From IMG/VR virus record IMGVR_UViG_3300008108_000264: a DNA stretch of 20,000 nucleotides; one strand, 5' to 3'. Source of the stretch: an uncultured virus (IMG/VR IMGVR_UViG_3300008108_000264) (Duplodnaviria > Heunggongvirae > Uroviricota > Caudoviricetes). Positions 4,985 through 18,792 of this stretch are shown here, one piece after another. Made by a program: the position numbers and the translations under genes. The first letter of the stretch is position 1, and each line of letters begins with the position of its first letter. Below the pieces are notes generated by a model. The model was not told where the DNA came from. It ran no database searches and was given only the letters and a program-made list of their open reading frames with translations.

Positions 4985-6610
4985 ATGAATTACGGAAAAC
5001 AAACAGTGATCGGAGATCCAACAGAAACAGGAAAGCAATGGTTAGATCATCATGATGATGTAGATTATGTTAACTTAAAAACTAATCATCATTATACTAA
5101 TAGTAAAGAAGATTTAATTAAAGGTGTAAATAAAATAGCTGATGTAGTAAAAGTAACACTTGGTGCTAAAGGTAAAAACGTACTATTTAATAATAGAGAT
5201 GGTAAACCTCAAATTACTAAAGATGGTATTACTGCAGCACGTCAGGTATTTTCCATTAATCCTTTTGAGAATATGGCTATACAAATAGTTAGAGAAGCAT
5301 CTGAGCAAACAGTTAAAACTAGCGGCGATGGTACAACTACAACTATTATATTAGCAAGGTATATTATTAACAAAGGATTTGAATTACTTAGTTCAGGTAA
5401 AATAAGTTACTATGAATTAGCTAAACAGATTGATGAGACTAAGGATCTTATAATTAATAAGATTAAAGAAAGATCTTTAAAAATTGAAGAGAACTTTGAT
5501 AAGCTTTTGCACGTAGCAACAATATCATCAAGTAATAAACAGATAGGTTCTTTTATATATGATATTATGGAAGAGATTGGTATATATGGATCTATCGAAG
5601 TTAAGTCATCTAATAATACTAAAGATGTAATAGATAAAGTTAAAGGTATAAAAACATCTAAAGGTTTTTACGCTCCTCACTTTGTTACTGATAGATTAAA
5701 GATGGAGTACAGAATGAATGATGTTCATATTGTATTAATTGATGATACTGTTAGAAGTTTTCAAAATGATATATTACCATATATTGAAGAAGCTCCAGGT
5801 AGACCTATTCTATTTTTTGTTAATGATATTGAACCAACTACTTTACAAACTATTATTAATAATAAAGTAGCTAATCCTCAAATGTTTAATATTATGTTTG
5901 TAGAACATGATGGATTTGGTGATAGAAGAATAGAAATAATGAATGACATTGCTGCAATGACTGGAGCTAGTGTTGGTAATGCAGAAGACTTTGGTGAGAT
6001 GGGATTTGCTAAAGAAGTAATAGTTGATGAAAATAGTACTTCTATATTAGGTGGATCTATAGATGAAGATATTGTAAATCGTCTTGTAGAAGAAACTCAA
6101 TATAAGTTAACTAATGACGAATTAGATGAAGACCAAAAGAAATATTACAGACGTAGATTAGCTACACTAAAAGGTGGTGTTGCTGTTATACATGTAGGTG
6201 GTATTACCGAAGTTGAAATGAAAGAGAAAAAAGATAGAATAGATGATGCAGTAGAAGCTGTTAAGTCTGCTATTGATAGAGGTATTAGTGTTGGTGGTGG
6301 TTATACTTTTATAAATATCTGTAATGATTTAAATAATGAAAATAATAAGGAAGGAGAACAAGTAATAATTAATTCTTTAATCCAACCATTTATTCAGTTA
6401 TGTAATAATGCAGATTCTAATAGTAATGAAATATTAACTAAGTTAATATTTGATTCAGGCGTAGGTTATGATGTAATCAATAACGAATTAGTACCATTAA
6501 ATAATTACAATGTATATGATCCTACAGGTGTATTAATTGATGCTTTAAGTAATGCTGTTGCTGTGGCTAAAAGTATACTATCTGTAGAATGTTCATTATA
6601 TAATTACTAG
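4985..6610 (+). CDS. groEL: Phage-encoded group I chaperonin (GroEL/Cpn60-like), 541 aa
   Basis: GVNKIADVVKVTLGAKGKNV, ITKDGITAA, ATP-binding GDGTTT, GFGDRR, GGVAVIHVGGITEVEMKEKKDRIDDAV (equivalent of catalytic D398), GGG and DPTGV are all colinear with GroEL. Confidence 0.96.
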   Translation: MNYGKQTVIGDPTETGKQWLDHHDDVDYVNLKTNHHYTNSKEDLIKGVNKIADVVKVTLGAKGKNVLFNNRDGKPQITKDGITAARQVFSINPFENMAIQIVREASEQTVKTSGDGTTTTIILARYIINKGFELLSSGKISYYELAKQIDETKDLIINKIKERSLKIEENFDKLLHVATISSSNKQIGSFIYDIMEEIGIYGSIEVKSSNNTKDVIDKVKGIKTSKGFYAPHFVTDRLKMEYRMNDVHIVLIDDTVRSFQNDILPYIEEAPGRPILFFVNDIEPTTLQTIINNKVANPQMFNIMFVEHDGFGDRRIEIMNDIAAMTGASVGNAEDFGEMGFAKEVIVDENSTSILGGSIDEDIVNRLVEETQYKLTNDELDEDQKKYYRRRLATLKGGVAVIHVGGITEVEMKEKKDRIDDAVEAVKSAIDRGISVGGGYTFINICNDLNNENNKEGEQVIINSLIQPFIQLCNNADSNSNEILTKLIFDSGVGYDVINNELVPLNNYNVYDPTGVLIDALSNAVAVAKSILSVECSLYNY

Positions 6611-6626
6611 GCTATATAATATAAAA
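6611..6626 (+). repeat. Left arm of 16-bp perfect inverted repeat GCTATATAATATAAAA
   Basis: Exact reverse complement of 9541-9556. Begins at the first base after the groEL TAG. Confidence 0.9.
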
Positions 6627-6675
6627 AAAATATCCTTTTTTAAGGAAAATCAAACTTTAATAAATAAATAATTAA

Positions 6676-6683
6676 TATTTTTG
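6676..6683 (+). promoter_or_regulatory. Possible Bacteroidota sigma-A -7 element (TAnnTTTG)
   Basis: TATTTTTG fits TAnnTTTG in the 74-bp gap before the scaffold gene. No clear -33 TTTG, and the context is very AT-rich. Confidence 0.3.
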
Positions 6684-6684
6684 T

Positions 6685-7935
6685 ATGGAAAAATTTATGC
6701 CAAACTTAAGTGACTTAGCTGACACTGAAATCAGCTTAAACGATTTAGATAATATTATTGAGAAGGAATCATTTAATTTCTCACAAGAAAGTCCTAATTT
6801 TTCAAATCAATCTGTTAGTCCTATGGATATGACTAATAGCTTGGTTCCAAAAGAAGATCCTTTCCAAAAAGAAATGATAAGTATTCTTGATAATGAAATA
6901 AATTCTTCAGGAGTTAACGATGCTCCAGAACCTAGAGTTCAAAATGAAATTCAACCTCAAGTTGATTATTATGAAAATCAAAATAATTATAATCAACCAG
7001 ATGCTTACGATGTTGCTTTTGAACTTATACAGGAGATGGATCTTCTAAGATTACCACAAGGTATTCAATCATTAACACCAGAAGAAATTCAATTTTATAA
7101 AGAACAAACATTAATTCAACAAAGAGAAGAAGCATTAGAATATCTAAGAAGTCAAATTTCACATGATCCTTATATGTTAGAAATATTTGACTATACTATG
7201 GCAGGAAAAGACTTTGCAGATATTACTACTTTTAAAGCTTTAAACAATGTTGAAATTAACTATGAGACACTTAACATAAATGATGAAGAAACTCAAAAAG
7301 AATTAGTAAGACAATATCTTTCAAGCGACTTAAATCCCGCAGATAAAAAAGATAGAGAATTACTTTCTTACATTCCTGAAAAGATAGAAAAATTATTAGA
7401 TTCAGGTGAGTTGAGACATAAAGCCGCTGAGGCAAGAGATCATTTTGTTAATAGAATAAGACAACAAAAAGAATTTGAATTTCAAAAAGCCATTGAATTA
7501 AGAGAAGCAAGCGAATACGAAGCGTGGTTAGAGCAGCAAGAACAATTACAATGGGATCAAGAGTTTAGAGAGATATTACATCAAAGACCTTGGAGTGATG
7601 CTAAAAAACATCAAATAGTAAAAGAGAGTCAGTTAATAGAATTAGAAGATGGATCCAGAATACCTATCTGGGATTACAAACGTCAAATTATTTTTTCTGA
7701 TCCTTACCTATTCCAACAGTTTTTAGATTTTACAGCTAAACTAGATTTACAACAAGGAGATTTTGTGGGTTTAGAATATTCTGATGAACCTGACTTATCT
7801 AAATCTACTATAAATAAAATATTAGAACGAGCAGTTCAAAAATCACAAACCGCTAAAAATAATTCTACTACTAGAAATCCTACTTTTGAAAAACAAAATA
7901 CTAAACAAGTAGCAGATCCTAATCAGTGGTTTTAA
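6685..7935 (+). CDS. Acidic protein upstream of MCP, putative capsid scaffold/assembly protein (crAss gene-77-like position)
   Basis: 416 aa, D/E/Q/N-rich low-complexity N-terminus and helical C-terminal half, immediately before MCP as in crAss-like head modules. Alternative in-frame start ATG at 6697. Confidence 0.6.
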   Translation: MEKFMPNLSDLADTEISLNDLDNIIEKESFNFSQESPNFSNQSVSPMDMTNSLVPKEDPFQKEMISILDNEINSSGVNDAPEPRVQNEIQPQVDYYENQNNYNQPDAYDVAFELIQEMDLLRLPQGIQSLTPEEIQFYKEQTLIQQREEALEYLRSQISHDPYMLEIFDYTMAGKDFADITTFKALNNVEINYETLNINDEETQKELVRQYLSSDLNPADKKDRELLSYIPEKIEKLLDSGELRHKAAEARDHFVNRIRQQKEFEFQKAIELREASEYEAWLEQQEQLQWDQEFREILHQRPWSDAKKHQIVKESQLIELEDGSRIPIWDYKRQIIFSDPYLFQQFLDFTAKLDLQQGDFVGLEYSDEPDLSKSTINKILERAVQKSQTAKNNSTTRNPTFEKQNTKQVADPNQWF

Positions 7936-7965
7936 CATTAATTAAATTTAAAATTTTATAAACAA

Positions 7966-9540
7966 ATGACAAATCCTACTAGTTTTCATAACTCTCAAGT
8001 AAGTTTTGGTGTTAAACCTGTTAAGGTTACTCCAGGCTTGGGTGTTAGAGGTGAAGTAACTTCATCTCACTTACATATGGCATTTGGTGTTGATCAACCT
8101 CATAATATTAACATGGGTTATGCTAGAGTATTCTCTGCAACTACTCGTTATTATGGTAAACCAATGGTTGGTATGACTGAAGCTAAAGGTAACATTAAAT
8201 TGTTATCATCTCATATTTATCGTTGGAGATTATCTGGCGATATGTATCAGAAACTTCGCGTAACTCGCGTAACTACTAATGATGTACGTCCAGGTCTTAA
8301 TCACTCTGCATTTACTCTTGTATTAGACAAGCCTTGGTTCCAAGTGCCTGACATTATTCAAGGTGAAGATAACAGATACAGACTTCGCGTTACTAATGAA
8401 GAACCTACTGAATTAGGTATCAATGAATTTGAATACACAGTTGAACTTGTAACTGACAATCCTAACGAATTCTTCCCTGCTGAACTTATAATGGAAGGTA
8501 TGGAATTCTGTAAAGTATCAAGTGCTGTAGCTAACGAAGGTAACCAAGATTTTGGTGGTTTCCAATTTGCTACTATCTTTGAATCTGAAGGACAACTTGG
8601 TCAATTCGCTGTTAAATTTGAATTAAGTGACCGTGCAGCTCGTAAAGCTAAACAGTGTGCTGATGAAGGAAAACATGGTGATGAGTACTATGGTCAATAT
8701 ATTAACCAACTTCGCGTTCCTTTTATGTCAACAGACGAAAATGGTAACATCCAAAAATGGACTAACTTTATGTCTATGGCTGAAGCAGAAATGCACAACC
8801 GTGTATATGAAGATGTTGAAAACGCAATGATGTTAGGTAAAGCTTCTAGCTGGATGACATCTAAAGAAGGTTATATCATCACAACTGGTTCTGGAGTACG
8901 TCAGCAATTAGAGTCTGGTAATGTTCTTCAGCACAATGGTAACATGACACTTTCTCAATTGAATGACTGGTTCACAGCTATTCTTAAAGACAAACGTGAT
9001 AGAGGAGATGCTAAGATCGTTCTTTCTTGTGGTATTAAGTTTGCTGAAATGTTTGACCGTATGGTTAAAGCTGATAGCTCTACTTTCTTAACACTTGACA
9101 CTCACTTTATCCGTAAAGGTTCTGATTATCATCACATGGATTATGGTAGCTATTTTGCTTCTTACAAAGGTTTCATCGTAGAAGTACAAGTTATGTTAAA
9201 TCCTGCTTATGACAATCGTTATTTCCAACCTAAAATGCACCCAGTATATACTAACTATACTATTGACTCTTGGAGAGCTGACATTCTTGACTTTGGTTCT
9301 ACCAAACAACAAGGTACAGGTCAAAGTGATCCTAACATCTCAATGGTAAAAGAATCTTACTGTGACTATCATATCTCTCACAGAGGTAAATGGGATCCTA
9401 AATCAGGTCTTCCTATTACTGACGGTGGTTATGGTTTAGCCGGTGGTATTTCAGGTTATACTCTTGTTCGTGAAAAATCAGCTGGTGTTATGATTGCTGA
9501 CGTATCACGTTGTGGAGCTATCTATTTGAATATAGATTAA
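7966..9540 (+). CDS. Major capsid protein, crAss-like (524 aa)
   Basis: Position and size fit. Motifs YRWRL, GSGVRQQLE, YGSYFASY, NPAYDN and HPVYT resemble crAss-like MCP. Visibly more CGT/AAC/TTC/ATC codons than neighbouring genes, consistent with high expression. Confidence 0.85.
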   Translation: MTNPTSFHNSQVSFGVKPVKVTPGLGVRGEVTSSHLHMAFGVDQPHNINMGYARVFSATTRYYGKPMVGMTEAKGNIKLLSSHIYRWRLSGDMYQKLRVTRVTTNDVRPGLNHSAFTLVLDKPWFQVPDIIQGEDNRYRLRVTNEEPTELGINEFEYTVELVTDNPNEFFPAELIMEGMEFCKVSSAVANEGNQDFGGFQFATIFESEGQLGQFAVKFELSDRAARKAKQCADEGKHGDEYYGQYINQLRVPFMSTDENGNIQKWTNFMSMAEAEMHNRVYEDVENAMMLGKASSWMTSKEGYIITTGSGVRQQLESGNVLQHNGNMTLSQLNDWFTAILKDKRDRGDAKIVLSCGIKFAEMFDRMVKADSSTFLTLDTHFIRKGSDYHHMDYGSYFASYKGFIVEVQVMLNPAYDNRYFQPKMHPVYTNYTIDSWRADILDFGSTKQQGTGQSDPNISMVKESYCDYHISHRGKWDPKSGLPITDGGYGLAGGISGYTLVREKSAGVMIADVSRCGAIYLNID

Positions 9541-9556
9541 TTTTATATTATATAGC
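9541..9556 (-). repeat. Right arm of 16-bp perfect inverted repeat (TTTTATATTATATAGC on + strand)
   Basis: Exact reverse complement of 6611-6626. Begins at the first base after the MCP TAA. Confidence 0.9.
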
Positions 9557-9564
9557 TAATTAAA

Positions 9565-9619
9565 GTGTTGATTTTAGAAAAGGATTGGGGGAGAAAATCC
9601 CCCTCTTCTAAATCAATGT
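9565..9619 (+). promoter_or_regulatory. Extended RNA stem-loop after MCP (attenuator, processing site or 3' stabiliser)
   Basis: Inner stem GGGGGA(9587-9592)-GAAAA-TCCCCC(9598-9603). Outer stem TTGATTTTAGAA(9568-9579) pairs with TTCTAAATCAA(9606-9616) with one bulge. No U-tract directly after. Confidence 0.7.
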
Positions 9620-9640
9620 AAAACTTTTAAAAATAAATTT

Positions 9641-10729
9641 ATGCCTAAATTAGAAACAAGAAACAATCCAAACGTAATTAAAATTGAACCTAGCCCAACT
9701 AAAAAGCCTACAGTAAAAGTTAAGATGCAAACTCTTAATATGGCAGGTGGCTCTCCAAAATTTATAACTGACGAAAGCGGTAAGAAGACTTACCAAATGA
9801 GTTATAAGGATCCTAAAAATCTTACAAGACTTCCAGGTACTGTTGTAGAATATTCTGCATCTCTTGGTAAAAATGGTTTAAATACCGGTCTTGATAAAAA
9901 CGTAGACAATCCTTATTCAGATTTAGATTTTTATAGACAAGGTTGGGAACCTATCCTAAAGGGTAAAAAGAAAGTTCGTTTACAAGAATTATTAGAATAT
10001 AAACATAATAAACCAGCAAATTATTATACAAATCAAGTTTCAGATATTCGCAGTTCTTATCAGATGGAGGAAGCTCCATTCTATCAAAGACCTGAATCAA
10101 GAATATCTTTAAGAGATGGTGTTACATATCTTGATTTAAATAATCCTATTCATGAGGTTAATTATTATATGTTACGTTCTCATAAAATGGTAGCTAATAG
10201 TTATGAAGAGTTAAAAACAAATCCTGACGCTACTCATTACATTGTAGATGAAAATGAAAAAGTTGGTCGTGAATCTGCATCTATCCGTAAAATAAATAAA
10301 GTGGGTGCATGTCTTGAAAAACTCATTAATATGCCTGATGGTACTATCCAAGATTTCTGTAAAGCAATGCTTGTTAACAAACAAGATTTAAATAAAGAAG
10401 AAGCTTACTCAGAACTTGATGCTGTAGTTAAAAAGTCAGATGAAAGATATGATGAGTTTATGGATCTTTATGAAATGTGGGATGATCCTGCAACTAGAGA
10501 GAAATTCATGGCTTACGTTGAAACAGCTGAATTTATGTCTGTACCTAGTTTAATAACTGTTAGAAATAATAAATTCTTCTGGACACAACCTGCAGGTGAT
10601 GGTGGTAAACGCGAATTATGGGAATGGAAATCTAAAGAAGATTTTATTAATTCATTCTTATTGGATCCTAGATATCAAGATGAAGTAGAAATTCTTAGAG
10701 CTCAATATAGATCTAAAACAAGATTCTAA
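9641..10729 (+). CDS. Conserved crAss-like hypothetical protein following MCP (gene-75-like position), 362 aa
   Basis: Synteny, plus segments LNTGLD and LDLNNPIHEVNYYML...VANS...ATHYIVDENE that resemble the crAss post-MCP family as I recall it. Confidence 0.6.
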   Translation: MPKLETRNNPNVIKIEPSPTKKPTVKVKMQTLNMAGGSPKFITDESGKKTYQMSYKDPKNLTRLPGTVVEYSASLGKNGLNTGLDKNVDNPYSDLDFYRQGWEPILKGKKKVRLQELLEYKHNKPANYYTNQVSDIRSSYQMEEAPFYQRPESRISLRDGVTYLDLNNPIHEVNYYMLRSHKMVANSYEELKTNPDATHYIVDENEKVGRESASIRKINKVGACLEKLINMPDGTIQDFCKAMLVNKQDLNKEEAYSELDAVVKKSDERYDEFMDLYEMWDDPATREKFMAYVETAEFMSVPSLITVRNNKFFWTQPAGDGGKRELWEWKSKEDFINSFLLDPRYQDEVEILRAQYRSKTRF

Positions 10730-12987: not shown

Positions 12988-14034
12988 ATGAGTTGTAAAT
13001 ATATTCCAATGTATATAGATAGAAGAGTTTTCGTAACAGGAAAGGAATCTATTTTAAATACTCATAATTTTGTTGAAGCAGGTTTCTTACCTAGAGGTGG
13101 AGAAGCCAATGATGTACTTGTAAAATGTACAAGTAAGGATTATCATACTAAATGGGATTCACTATTAAATATATTAACACCTCTACTTCCAACTCTACTT
13201 CAAGGTTTATACACATTTGAAAATGCATTAACAGAATCTCCCAATTTTACTGTTAAGTGGGGTGGTAATTTAACAATAAATACTTCAATAGACGGTCTTA
13301 ATTTATACGGAGTTTCATTTAAAAACTTAAATGGATTCAATGTAGGTACCAATGCATCAGATATTACATTAAGTACTACTACAGGAGATATTGTAATAGA
13401 ATCTGATGATATTCTAGAATTACAAGGAAAAAATGAAATTAGAATAGTAACTCCTAATGTTACTAATACTACAGCTACTGCTGGTCAAGTACTTCAATTA
13501 ATAGATCAAACTACAGGAGAATCTGAATGGCAAAGTTATATAAATAAATGTGAAGTATTACATTTCTTTGACAACCCTCTTAATGTAACAGTACCAGATG
13601 GTACTATATTACCTTCTACGTATTTAGCTGATAATTATCTTTTATTAGGAAATACATTATCAACTGATGGTAGTTATATTGAAGTAGAAGCTGTACAAAC
13701 TGTTACAGGAACATCTGGAGCTGTACCTCAATTAGTAATAGGATTGGGATTAGGACTATCACCTTTAGTTAAATATACTAGAAATCCTCCTGATCATCAA
13801 TTTACTCATATTGCTAAAGGTAAGATATTTAGAACTTCATCAACTACAGTATATCTTAGTATTGAAGGAAATATTTATGATCCTACAGGTGAACGTATAA
13901 ATTCTTATTATGATTATCAATCAGGATCTTTTAACTGGATTAGTAATGCAAATATAGTTTGTAATTTTAATTTAGGTATTGGAGATCATGTTTCTGAATT
14001 AAAACATTTTTCAATTACTAAATTTTTAAAATAA
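12988..14034 (+). CDS. Putative fibre/decoration protein (348 aa; start moved to ATG 12988)
   Basis: The listed GTG at 12949 lies inside the terminator stem, whereas ATG 12988 is in frame with an A-rich leader. N-terminal YIDRR..TGK motif shared with three downstream genes. Fibre-type segments LPRGGEANDVLVK..DYHTKW and ATAGQVLQL..GESEW. T/G/N-rich. Confidence 0.6.
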   Translation: MSCKYIPMYIDRRVFVTGKESILNTHNFVEAGFLPRGGEANDVLVKCTSKDYHTKWDSLLNILTPLLPTLLQGLYTFENALTESPNFTVKWGGNLTINTSIDGLNLYGVSFKNLNGFNVGTNASDITLSTTTGDIVIESDDILELQGKNEIRIVTPNVTNTTATAGQVLQLIDQTTGESEWQSYINKCEVLHFFDNPLNVTVPDGTILPSTYLADNYLLLGNTLSTDGSYIEVEAVQTVTGTSGAVPQLVIGLGLGLSPLVKYTRNPPDHQFTHIAKGKIFRTSSTTVYLSIEGNIYDPTGERINSYYDYQSGSFNWISNANIVCNFNLGIGDHVSELKHFSITKFLK

Positions 14035-16310: not shown

Positions 16311-16823
16311 ATGAAAAAAATATATATAGATAAAAGAGTTACCGTTACTGGTAAACAAAATACATTAGATACATCTAATAATCTTGATTTAAATAAACAC
16401 ATTGAAAGTGTAGTAGAAGAATTAGATTTAGGTACAAGCTTACCGTATAAAAAGTATGTTGCTGTTATTTCACAAACAGGTGAAAGTGCTCCTACTGCTA
16501 TTATTCTTGAAAATACTTTAGGTGAAGTTCCAACATGGTCATATCCTGATCCTACTAAAAAAGGTACATATACATTAACATCAGTTGATCCTAAATTATT
16601 TGAAGGACATGTTGGTGTTTTCTTTTCATCAACTGGTGAACAACCTTTTGAAGGAGTACTTGGTCAATATGCTGAACTTTCAGGTGATAAACCAAAATAT
16701 GATTATCAATTAAATTTTTATTCTGCTAACGTTGATGGTACTGGAAACAGAAATCTTTCTGATGGTTTATTTAATTGTATGATTGAAATTAGAGTTTATC
16801 CTTTAACTAATATAGAAAACTAA
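16311..16823 (+). CDS. Putative fibre/decoration protein with shared N-terminal motif, 170 aa
   Basis: MKKIYIDKRV..G...LDLNKHIE N-terminus followed by a compact beta domain (YKKYVAVISQTG...IEIRVY). Confidence 0.6.
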   Translation: MKKIYIDKRVTVTGKQNTLDTSNNLDLNKHIESVVEELDLGTSLPYKKYVAVISQTGESAPTAIILENTLGEVPTWSYPDPTKKGTYTLTSVDPKLFEGHVGVFFSSTGEQPFEGVLGQYAELSGDKPKYDYQLNFYSANVDGTGNRNLSDGLFNCMIEIRVYPLTNIEN

Positions 16824-16827
16824 AACT

Positions 16828-18792
16828 ATGAAAAAATTATTTATAGACAAAAGAACATTTAAATCAGGTAAAAAATCATTCTTAAATGTAAGTACTACTC
16901 TTGATTTATTTAAATATATTAAATCAGTAGGTGGTAGTGTAGAATTTGTAGAACAAACTTATAATAGTTTACTTAGTAAAGTAAATGCTGGAACTTTAGT
17001 ACCAGGTACTTACTATGTTATAACAGATTATCAAACTTGTTATAATCAACCTGATTATGATCAATTTAAAAACCCTATTGCAGTTTCAAATGCTTCTTAT
17101 GTAACTACATCTGTAGATCCAATTATAGTATTTGCTACTTCTACAAGTACACTTGCACCTGATGCATATCAACCAAGTTATCCTAATGATAAAATTAAGT
17201 ACGATATATTTTATAGTACAACTGAATCTGGAGATCCAGCGTTTGGTAGAATAACTGAAAGAATTGATGAATTTGGAAATCGTGCAGATTATGATCATCG
17301 CACTATTCAATTTAAAAGATATATGTTATATACTTATAGTAAAGTTTTACCTTTACCAGGAACAGTTGAATTACAGAGTGATGGTACAGTACTTGGTACA
17401 TTAACAACTTTTACTTCATTATTACCTAAACAAATTATAGCAATTAAAGGTAGCACTGAAACTTTTTATGAAATTGATACAATTACTGATGATTTTACTA
17501 TGACTGTAACAGGAGAAGCTATTACTGCAACTGGTGCAGGATTTCAATTTTTTAATGCAAATTCTCATAGCGATGATAGTTATTATCCAAACAATGTTAA
17601 TGGACAAGTATCGTTTACTCTTTACTATACCTTTCAAGCTTCAGTAACATTTGGTGGAGATGGTTGTATTAATACATACATTGGAGACCATGCTAAGTAC
17701 GTTATAAATGAAGGTATTGGTGATTTCTTATTAGCAAATAATGTTCTTAAAGATGGTGCTTATCGGAATAATACCATTGGTGATAGTTCTTATAATAATA
17801 CTTTTAATGATGATTGTACTGCTAATCAAATAGGCTACGGCTTTAGAAATAATATTACTGATGATGACTTTGATGAAAATGTAATTGGAACTTTCTTTGA
17901 AAATAATATCATTACAGCAAATTTTTATGATAATCATATAGGTAATGATTTTAACGATAATTTTATTTTGTGTGATAGTTTTTATAGAAACCAAATTGGA
18001 AATGATTTTAGAGATAATTGGTTAGACGGTGATTTTGGTTTTGACTTCCAAAATAATCAAATTGGTAATCAGTTTAATAATAATGAAATTTACAAAGATT
18101 TTTATAAAAATGTTATCCTTAATGGATATAATCAAAATCAAATTTGGGATCAATTTATTGGAAATAAAATAGGAAACGGTTTTAATGCTAATCAAATTTT
18201 TAATAATTTTTACGATAACCATATTTTAGATTATTTTACAAGCAATATTATTGGTGATGCTACATTTGCTGTTTTATATTCATTTAATAGTAATATTATT
18301 AATAATTCTTTTCAAAATAATACTATTTTAGGTAATTTTTTCAAAAACAATATTGGAAATAATTTTTCTGCAAATAATATTGGATTTGAATTTAGAAACA
18401 ATTTAATTGGTAGCGATTTTTCAAGTAATGATTTAGGTGATAATTTTGGTTATAATGTAATTGGTAATACTTTTCAAAATAATGTAATTGGTAATGACTT
18501 TGGTTACGGTGGTAGTGCTACACGTGGAAATAAAATAGGAAACACTTTTGTTGGAAATAATATTGGTGAAAATTTCTATGATAATGTAATTTCTGATTTA
18601 TTTATAAATAACATTATAGTTGATAATTTTAAATTTAACCATATTTCTTATTCTTTATTTGGATTTGACTTTACAACTGCTACGCATGTTTATGCTGATT
18701 ATAATTGTAAAATTATTAAATCAAGTGATACTAGCTATTATTTAGAATATTTAAATATAGTAACACCTACATATGTAGCAATAACTGCATAA
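16828..18792 (+). CDS. Putative tail fibre/spike with C-terminal Asn-rich beta-solenoid, 654 aa
   Basis: Shared N-terminal motif, fibre-like GTVELQSDGTVLGTLTTF segment, and about 30 nonapeptide repeats N-x-I-G-x-x-F-x-x. Confidence 0.65.
   Translation: MKKLFIDKRTFKSGKKSFLNVSTTLDLFKYIKSVGGSVEFVEQTYNSLLSKVNAGTLVPGTYYVITDYQTCYNQPDYDQFKNPIAVSNASYVTTSVDPIIVFATSTSTLAPDAYQPSYPNDKIKYDIFYSTTESGDPAFGRITERIDEFGNRADYDHRTIQFKRYMLYTYSKVLPLPGTVELQSDGTVLGTLTTFTSLLPKQIIAIKGSTETFYEIDTITDDFTMTVTGEAITATGAGFQFFNANSHSDDSYYPNNVNGQVSFTLYYTFQASVTFGGDGCINTYIGDHAKYVINEGIGDFLLANNVLKDGAYRNNTIGDSSYNNTFNDDCTANQIGYGFRNNITDDDFDENVIGTFFENNIITANFYDNHIGNDFNDNFILCDSFYRNQIGNDFRDNWLDGDFGFDFQNNQIGNQFNNNEIYKDFYKNVILNGYNQNQIWDQFIGNKIGNGFNANQIFNNFYDNHILDYFTSNIIGDATFAVLYSFNSNIINNSFQNNTILGNFFKNNIGNNFSANNIGFEFRNNLIGSDFSSNDLGDNFGYNVIGNTFQNNVIGNDFGYGGSATRGNKIGNTFVGNNIGENFYDNVISDLFINNIIVDNFKFNHISYSLFGFDFTTATHVYADYNCKIIKSSDTSYYLEYLNIVTPTYVAITA
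17770..18660 (+). repeat. Degenerate 27-nt (9-aa) coding tandem repeat
   Basis: Examples: NQIGYGFRN, NVIGTFFEN, NHIGNDFND, NQIGNDFRD, NKIGNGFNA, NNIGNNFSA, NVIGNTFQN, NNIGENFYD. Confidence 0.85.

Follow-up and report, generated by a model that had tools for sequence, protein, structure and literature searches.

A conserved box ahead of the head-gene promoter of crAss-like phages is a candidate activator site lying in one arm of a very probably coincidental inverted repeat

The window analyzed here is a stretch of 20,000 nt from an uncultured virus (IMG/VR record IMGVR_UViG_3300008108_000264), and it contains the head module of a crAss-like phage, in which the terminase, the portal, groEL, an acidic orphan protein in the scaffold position, and the major capsid protein (MCP) were found. 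The terminase, portal, and MCP are of the crAss type and lie in head-module order. A 16-bp inverted repeat, noticed in an earlier sequence-only reading of the window, brackets the scaffold-position and MCP genes (Table 1). Its arms (6611–6626 and 9541–9556) were confirmed to be exact reverse complements, and the first base of each directly follows a stop codon (TAG of groEL at 6608–6610 and TAA of the MCP gene at 9538–9540). The repeat itself is without importance; the worthwhile object is a short conserved box in its left arm, which precedes a promoter element of the Bacteroidota sigma-A type.

The box reads GGCTAT at 6610–6615, forms the start of the left arm, and is overlapped at its upstream edge by the groEL stop codon; the surrounding AT-rich DNA is otherwise unconserved. 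Measured from the start of its GCT, the box stands 65 bp ahead of the −7 element, which precedes the putative scaffold and MCP genes, and its score with the box matrix (12.8) is the best on the plus strand of the window. Relatives were gathered from viral, metagenome, and genome contigs and from named phages. In the discovery set, the box was present in 24 of the 32 lineages examined, corresponding to 24 of the 28 given a −7 anchor; four lineages with an anchor lacked it, and four others had no gap or no −7 element. Two of the 24 boxes were GGCG variants. The sequence GGCTATATAAT was identical to that of the window in L043, L044, and L063 at 45–50% MCP identity, and the 13 bases at 6608–6620 were identical in L182. 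The bases following GCTA(T) were not conserved. Box-like words occurred in other gaps at a background of 2 per 2620 nt.

Table 1. Features of the scaffold–MCP region of the window
Feature	Position	Strand	Remark
Phage groEL	4985..6610	+	PHROG 5725, E 1.9e-114; Pfam Cpn60_TCP1
Conserved upstream box, consensus ~W-R-G-GCT-A-T-W	6608..6616	+	Candidate activator site
Left arm of inverted repeat	6611..6626	+	Conserved only in its first bases (box)
Bacteroidota sigma-A −7 element TAnnTTTG, TATTTTTG	6676..6683	+	Intergenic; predicted start ~6688
Putative scaffold, acidic protein before MCP	6685..7935	+	Label from position only
MCP, crAss-like	7966..9540	+	PHROG 11589, E 5.8e-39
Right arm of inverted repeat	9541..9556	+	Unconserved spacer between MCP stop and hairpin
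Short motif at hairpin base, common to the window and L002–L004	9556..9570	+	Alignment A9
Post-MCP stem-loop	9567..9617	+	z −2.37 in the window; −5.59, −3.88, and −3.43 in L002–L004

The prediction was written down before new loci, found by portal and MCP alignments, were read. The matrix built from the 24 discovery lineages scored at least 7 in 11 of the 13 held-out lineages and in none of the 29 controls (Mann–Whitney p 5e-6), which were other TAnnTTT(G/AC) candidates of related genomes and included some doubtful promoters. Loci were left out of the held-out set as duplicates or near-duplicates (L184, L185, L206, L226, L235–L238, L242, L245, L247, L248, and L250), for having no scored scaffold gap (L189, L197, L198, L209, L224, L228, L243, L249, L251, and L252), or for having no −7 element matching the regular expression (L182, with the box, and L253, without it). 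A strict two-part pattern occurred as a single copy in three of five held-out contigs, with zero matches to the reversed pattern, and a loose genome-wide scan for the box plus −7 element gave counts close to those of the downstream control. At ~115926–116060 of G002 (minus strand), a 1401-aa gene has a box that directly follows a stop codon, with a −7 element 60 bp further on; this gene is a possible second member beyond the head module.

Over 37 boxes, GCT preceded the −7 element by 44 bp (one box), 53–58 bp (18), 61 bp (two), 64–68 bp (15), or 76 bp (one). The box is accordingly a conserved sequence at a constrained distance from a core promoter, as would be expected of an activator site. 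The distances to the ATG were 64–77 and 73–105 in the 53–58 and 64–68 classes, respectively, and between L047 and L048 the −7 distance was kept while the ATG distance changed. Relative to the upstream stop codon (n = 36), the box lay 0–3 nt past it in 17 lineages, inside coding sequence in five, and more than 3 nt past it in 14. Its distance to the −7 element is kept also where it is part of the upstream coding sequence. The abutment of both arms on stop codons, which had been put forward as striking, is real; for the box of the left arm it is a common arrangement, explained by an upstream gene packed against the promoter edge and by a preference for T/A-A-G before GCT.

The −7 element of the window fits TAHHTTTG, is intergenic, and lies on the sense strand. 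The same element was found ahead of the scaffold-position gene of phi14:2, crAss001, DAC17, p-crAssphage, crAss002, IAS, and Fpv3. According to PMC9723704 and PMC6847099, the Bacteroidota sigma-A −7 element covers −12 to −5, which would place the start near 6688 and suggests ATG 6697 as the start codon. The second ATG at 6697, rather than 6685, is probably the start of the scaffold-position gene, and the protein read from 6697 has, by eye, an N-terminus like those of L002 and L004. A start 4–5 nt after the final G suits ATG 6697 in the window and, for several relatives, is at odds with their first ATG. The −33 TTG is absent in the window and was rare in the lineages scored (2/24 discovery and 0/13 held-out, vs. 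7/29 control promoters); the −33 element is weak in F. johnsoniae too (PMC6847099). A sigma-70 scan stayed at chance level (108 vs. 121).

The box is also present in the cultured phage phi14:2, in which the 95 kb examined contain the 12-mer ACGCTATTAAAA at exactly two places. Both copies lie 68 bp before −7 elements, those of g092 (portal) and g093 (scaffold position), and their distances to the ATG are 105 and 82, respectively. According to the preprint on this phage (bioRxiv 10.1101/2020.03.07.982082), late genes are transcribed by the host polymerase, homologs of g092 and g093 are often preceded by a promoter motif, and a tripartite logo is built on the middle promoters g070, g075, g108, and g110; its main text nowhere mentions GCTAT or an activator, and its figures or supplements may show these sequences. 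More generally, middle and late genes of crAss-like phages are thought to be transcribed by the host polymerase (bioRxiv 10.1101/2020.03.07.982082; PMC8375218; PMC10136315). The passages of these three papers that were consulted name no element separating the middle from the late class or boosting the capsid genes. Neither the upstream box nor a late activator is mentioned in these passages, and literature searches aimed at them found neither. The promoter before the scaffold-position gene has already been reported, and the box in its upstream region appears to be new. It is a concrete, mutable cis element, and since it occurs in a cultured phage whose infection time course has been published, the question becomes directly testable.

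We propose, with a probability of roughly 0.55, that an activator binds the box and, from this upstream site, turns on a late promoter used by the host polymerase, and that the inverted repeat is a coincidence. The left arm would open with the box, marking the upstream edge of the scaffold/MCP promoter with the preceding gene packed against it, and the right arm would be a freely drifting AT-rich spacer following the MCP stop. Host RNA polymerase with sigma-A would start at ~6688, and a sequence-specific protein at the box (~−78 to −73) would turn the promoter on at the late stage of infection and so lift the output of scaffold and MCP over that of portal and groEL; the hairpin past the MCP gene would then reduce read-through.

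The contig of the window encodes a 175-aa winged-helix-like protein (by eye and weak Atlas hits) beside an 87-aa HU-like protein. The pair was located in L111 at 17014–17541 and 16779–17042, respectively, on the minus strand upstream of the terminase, and by position it corresponds to g098 and g097 of phi14:2. It is conserved across relatives, G005 and G008 among them although they have no box, with weak matches in crAss001 and DAC17. The Atlas returned RepL-like feature hits and TM values below 0.5 to MotA and MarR clusters, which serve as leads only. The two proteins may be regarded as a candidate binder and a candidate DNA bender. A wider model, in which environmental crAss-like phages, including phi14:2, switch the host polymerase to the head genes by means of the box, with the winged-helix protein binding it and the HU-like protein bending the spacer in helical-turn steps (44, 53–58, 64–68, and 76 bp), is a tentative extension that is more doubtful than the activator site itself; under this model, the box would supply the missing switch from middle to late expression.

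The arrangement shares its gene position and TAnnTTTG element with the middle/late host-polymerase promoters of crAss-like phages (phi14:2) and, unlike the published phi14:2 promoter motif, includes a box 53–68 bp upstream of the −7 element. Compared with the Bacteroidota sigma-A promoter (−33 TTTG / −7 TAnnTTTG), the −7 element matches, the −33 TTG is rare, and the far-upstream box is extra. The Mu C and Mor promoters likewise combine a short upstream site with a host-polymerase promoter of structural genes. P2 Ogr and the T4 MotA box represent other activator-dependent phage promoters, and the activator sites of Mu, P2, and T4 lie nearer to the core promoter than the box does here. The sites of these phages have known binders, whereas the box lies at ~−65 to −80, is mostly single-copy, and has a binder that is only predicted.

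Several observations weigh against an activator site. The three closest relatives (L002–L004, 79–82% MCP identity to the window) lost the box and the −7 element alike, and thus must express their head genes differently; their pre-scaffold gap has shrunk to 11–38 nt. The −7 element lies 1–3 nt before the first ATG in many lineages, too near for a canonical start (this was observed with the first in-frame ATG in L016, L020, L022, L026, L027, and L230–L241). The overall spread is alike for both anchors, with standard deviations of 6.3 to the −7 element and 8.1 to the ATG. No protein family tracked box presence in the gene-content comparison, and the strict pattern was absent from five of five gut Crassvirales. 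In phi14:2, the middle promoters g070, g075, and g110 have no box, and at g108, another middle gene, GCTAT stands 72 bp ahead of a −7-like element, so that the box is not cleanly late-only. As for the sampling, the discovery −7 anchors of L011, L050, L026, L047, and L137 were variants chosen by eye, the 13 held-out lineages are mutually related (about five groups by estimate, made with no tree), and phi14:2 g093, a true box scoring 6.6 and thus below the threshold of 7, was counted among the controls. Moreover, helical phasing is unconfirmed. For five values chosen post hoc, the discovery set gave R 0.99 at a period of 10.75 with p 0.00035, which rose to 0.13 once outgroups were included; on a quick MCP tree (34 rows), this set pointed to some four spacing changes by full helical turns. 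In the held-out set, 4 of 11 boxes fell on the pre-registered phasing grid, where 39% were expected by chance. Finally, the p of 0.004 for the repeat in intergenic DNA, given below, is not trivial.

The closeness of the −7 element to the ATG in so many lineages keeps two other explanations of the box alive. One of them, which is unlikely but would account for these −7 elements, takes the box for a −10-like core. This core would belong to a second promoter in tandem, read by a phage polymerase or by the host polymerase in modified form, and the fixed distance would reflect only tight packing. Several boxes read TGCTATAAT or GGCTATATAAT, and box-to-ATG distances concentrate at 64–69 and 72–77, as a tandem promoter would have it; the lack of conservation after GCTA(T) speaks against such a core, as does the constancy of the −7 distance in phi14:2 g092/g093 and in L047/L048 while the ATG distance shifts. 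We also consider it improbable that the box acts in read-through RNA, whether as a site of processing, as the degenerate arm of a terminator, or as the operator for an autoregulation of scaffold like that of P22 (cited in PMC5529062). The frequent position just past a stop codon (17/36) would fit an RNA site, and in L029, L043, L063, L044, and L023 a local hairpin, paired in part by G–U, has the box as its 5′ arm. However, most boxes, including that of the window, have no local hairpin, the box of L050 is a 3′ arm, five lineages hold the box inside coding sequence, and the spacing tracks a DNA promoter element.

For the repeat as a whole, the chance expectation depends on where it is sought. 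Whole-window shuffles contained some 16-mer inverted match in 120 of 200 cases, whereas dinucleotide shuffles of the 393 intergenic nt yielded a 16-bp repeat between two gaps in 20 of 5000 (p 0.004). The repeat is unusual for a single window (~0.4%), yet expected somewhere in a large scan, and it is very probably a coincidence of two unrelated things. A second perfect 16-bp inverted repeat (2205–2220 / 6858–6873) has both arms in coding DNA.

Among the functions suggested for the repeat, a long-range RNA duplex, in which pairing of the arms on a read-through transcript of this lineage only would close off a loop of 2.9 kb and so serve processing or stabilization, is quite improbable. The 16-bp helix (−15.5 kcal/mol) is present in the minimum free energy fold of naked RNA 6560–9660 (3.1 kb), which ignores ribosomes, and the low intergenic shuffle count favors pairing. 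On the other side, the covariation between arms that would support pairing was not seen in the 29 relatives with both gaps; none had a pre-scaffold/post-MCP complement longer than 9 nt (longest perfect 5–9 nt), and 870 mismatched, non-cognate gap pairs gave longest complements of 4–12 nt. In duplex energy, 4 of these 29 relatives had at most three foreign partners equalling their own, which is about chance, and pairing as strong as in the window was reached with one foreign gap on the right and with three on the left. Both arms are missing in L002–L004, whose post-MCP spacer has another length and another sequence; the left-arm 19-mer was found, among viral contigs, in the window's own contig only. 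A transcript starting at ~6688 would begin past the left arm. The claimed extension by TAATTA on both sides of a CTAG bulge exists in the sequence and was unused in the best RNAduplex structure. RNase III stems, which flank rRNA, likewise place a long-range complement around a transcript segment; unlike them, the repeat is unconserved, shows no covariation, has only two G–C pairs, and has its left arm upstream of the predicted start. The suggestion of oppositely oriented binding sites or promoters stood for the left arm, with its conserved box tied to a promoter, and failed for the right. An inverted box copy there, driving antisense transcription or looping DNA, is very improbable: the right arm does read GCTATAT on the minus strand, resembling the left box, but with the box matrix it reaches only 5.5, and six further sites on the minus strand of the window score higher. 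The 95 nt downstream of it on that strand hold no −7-like element, and the inverted copy is absent in relatives. Least credible of all are recombination sites inverting the capsid cassette, for which the geometry alone speaks. No strand-switch joint was found in the contigs assembled from four runs (three of DNA, one of RNA), a material from which rare variants are dropped; one contig spans 5001–11000 uninverted, and all the relatives examined keep the orientation of the cassette. Two short-sided joints ending at 9529 and 9537 were rejected, with other organisms as their probable source.

The separate hairpin reported after the MCP gene was borne out; the centroid structure had a z-score matched by 2 of 200 equally good shuffles. 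It is probably a leaky terminator or a 3′ stabilizer. RNAalifold of the four-way alignment of the window and L002–L004 gave no consensus structure for it. A post-MCP hairpin was also observed in many distant relatives and in named crAss-like phages (in L002, at 7574–7650). Among the contigs listed for RNA run X16, coverage extended from 6855 to 10581 with a break at 9565–9602 and none listed over groEL; neither a single run nor missing coverage counts as evidence here.

The DNA of the window was contained best in sequencing runs mostly labeled lake, river, or freshwater, and the nearest record matches it identically across 11.5 kb. Its MCP is ~20% identical to those of Fpv3 and the cr phages. 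The scaffold-position protein had no PHROG hit and a Pfam match only below the cutoff, a ring-protein Pfam match in the window (E 8e-5) was likewise below the cutoff, and Rfam at the gathering threshold returned zero matches. Among the relatives, intron-like or nuclease-like inserts split the MCP genes of L048, L062, L085, L094, and L137, and long inserts were observed in the groEL genes of L020, L027, L048, and L198. L154–L158 are phage head modules within genome bins labeled archaea or Gammaproteobacteria, and these are probably mis-binned contigs. Related N-termini (MKKIYIDKR-like) open four genes of the window, at 12988, 16311, 16828, and 18828, and perhaps represent a shared virion-attachment module. 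In G007 (61700–65200), several small open reading frames are preceded by recurring elements, perhaps early promoters, in which short inverted repeats enclose a TATAAT-like core.

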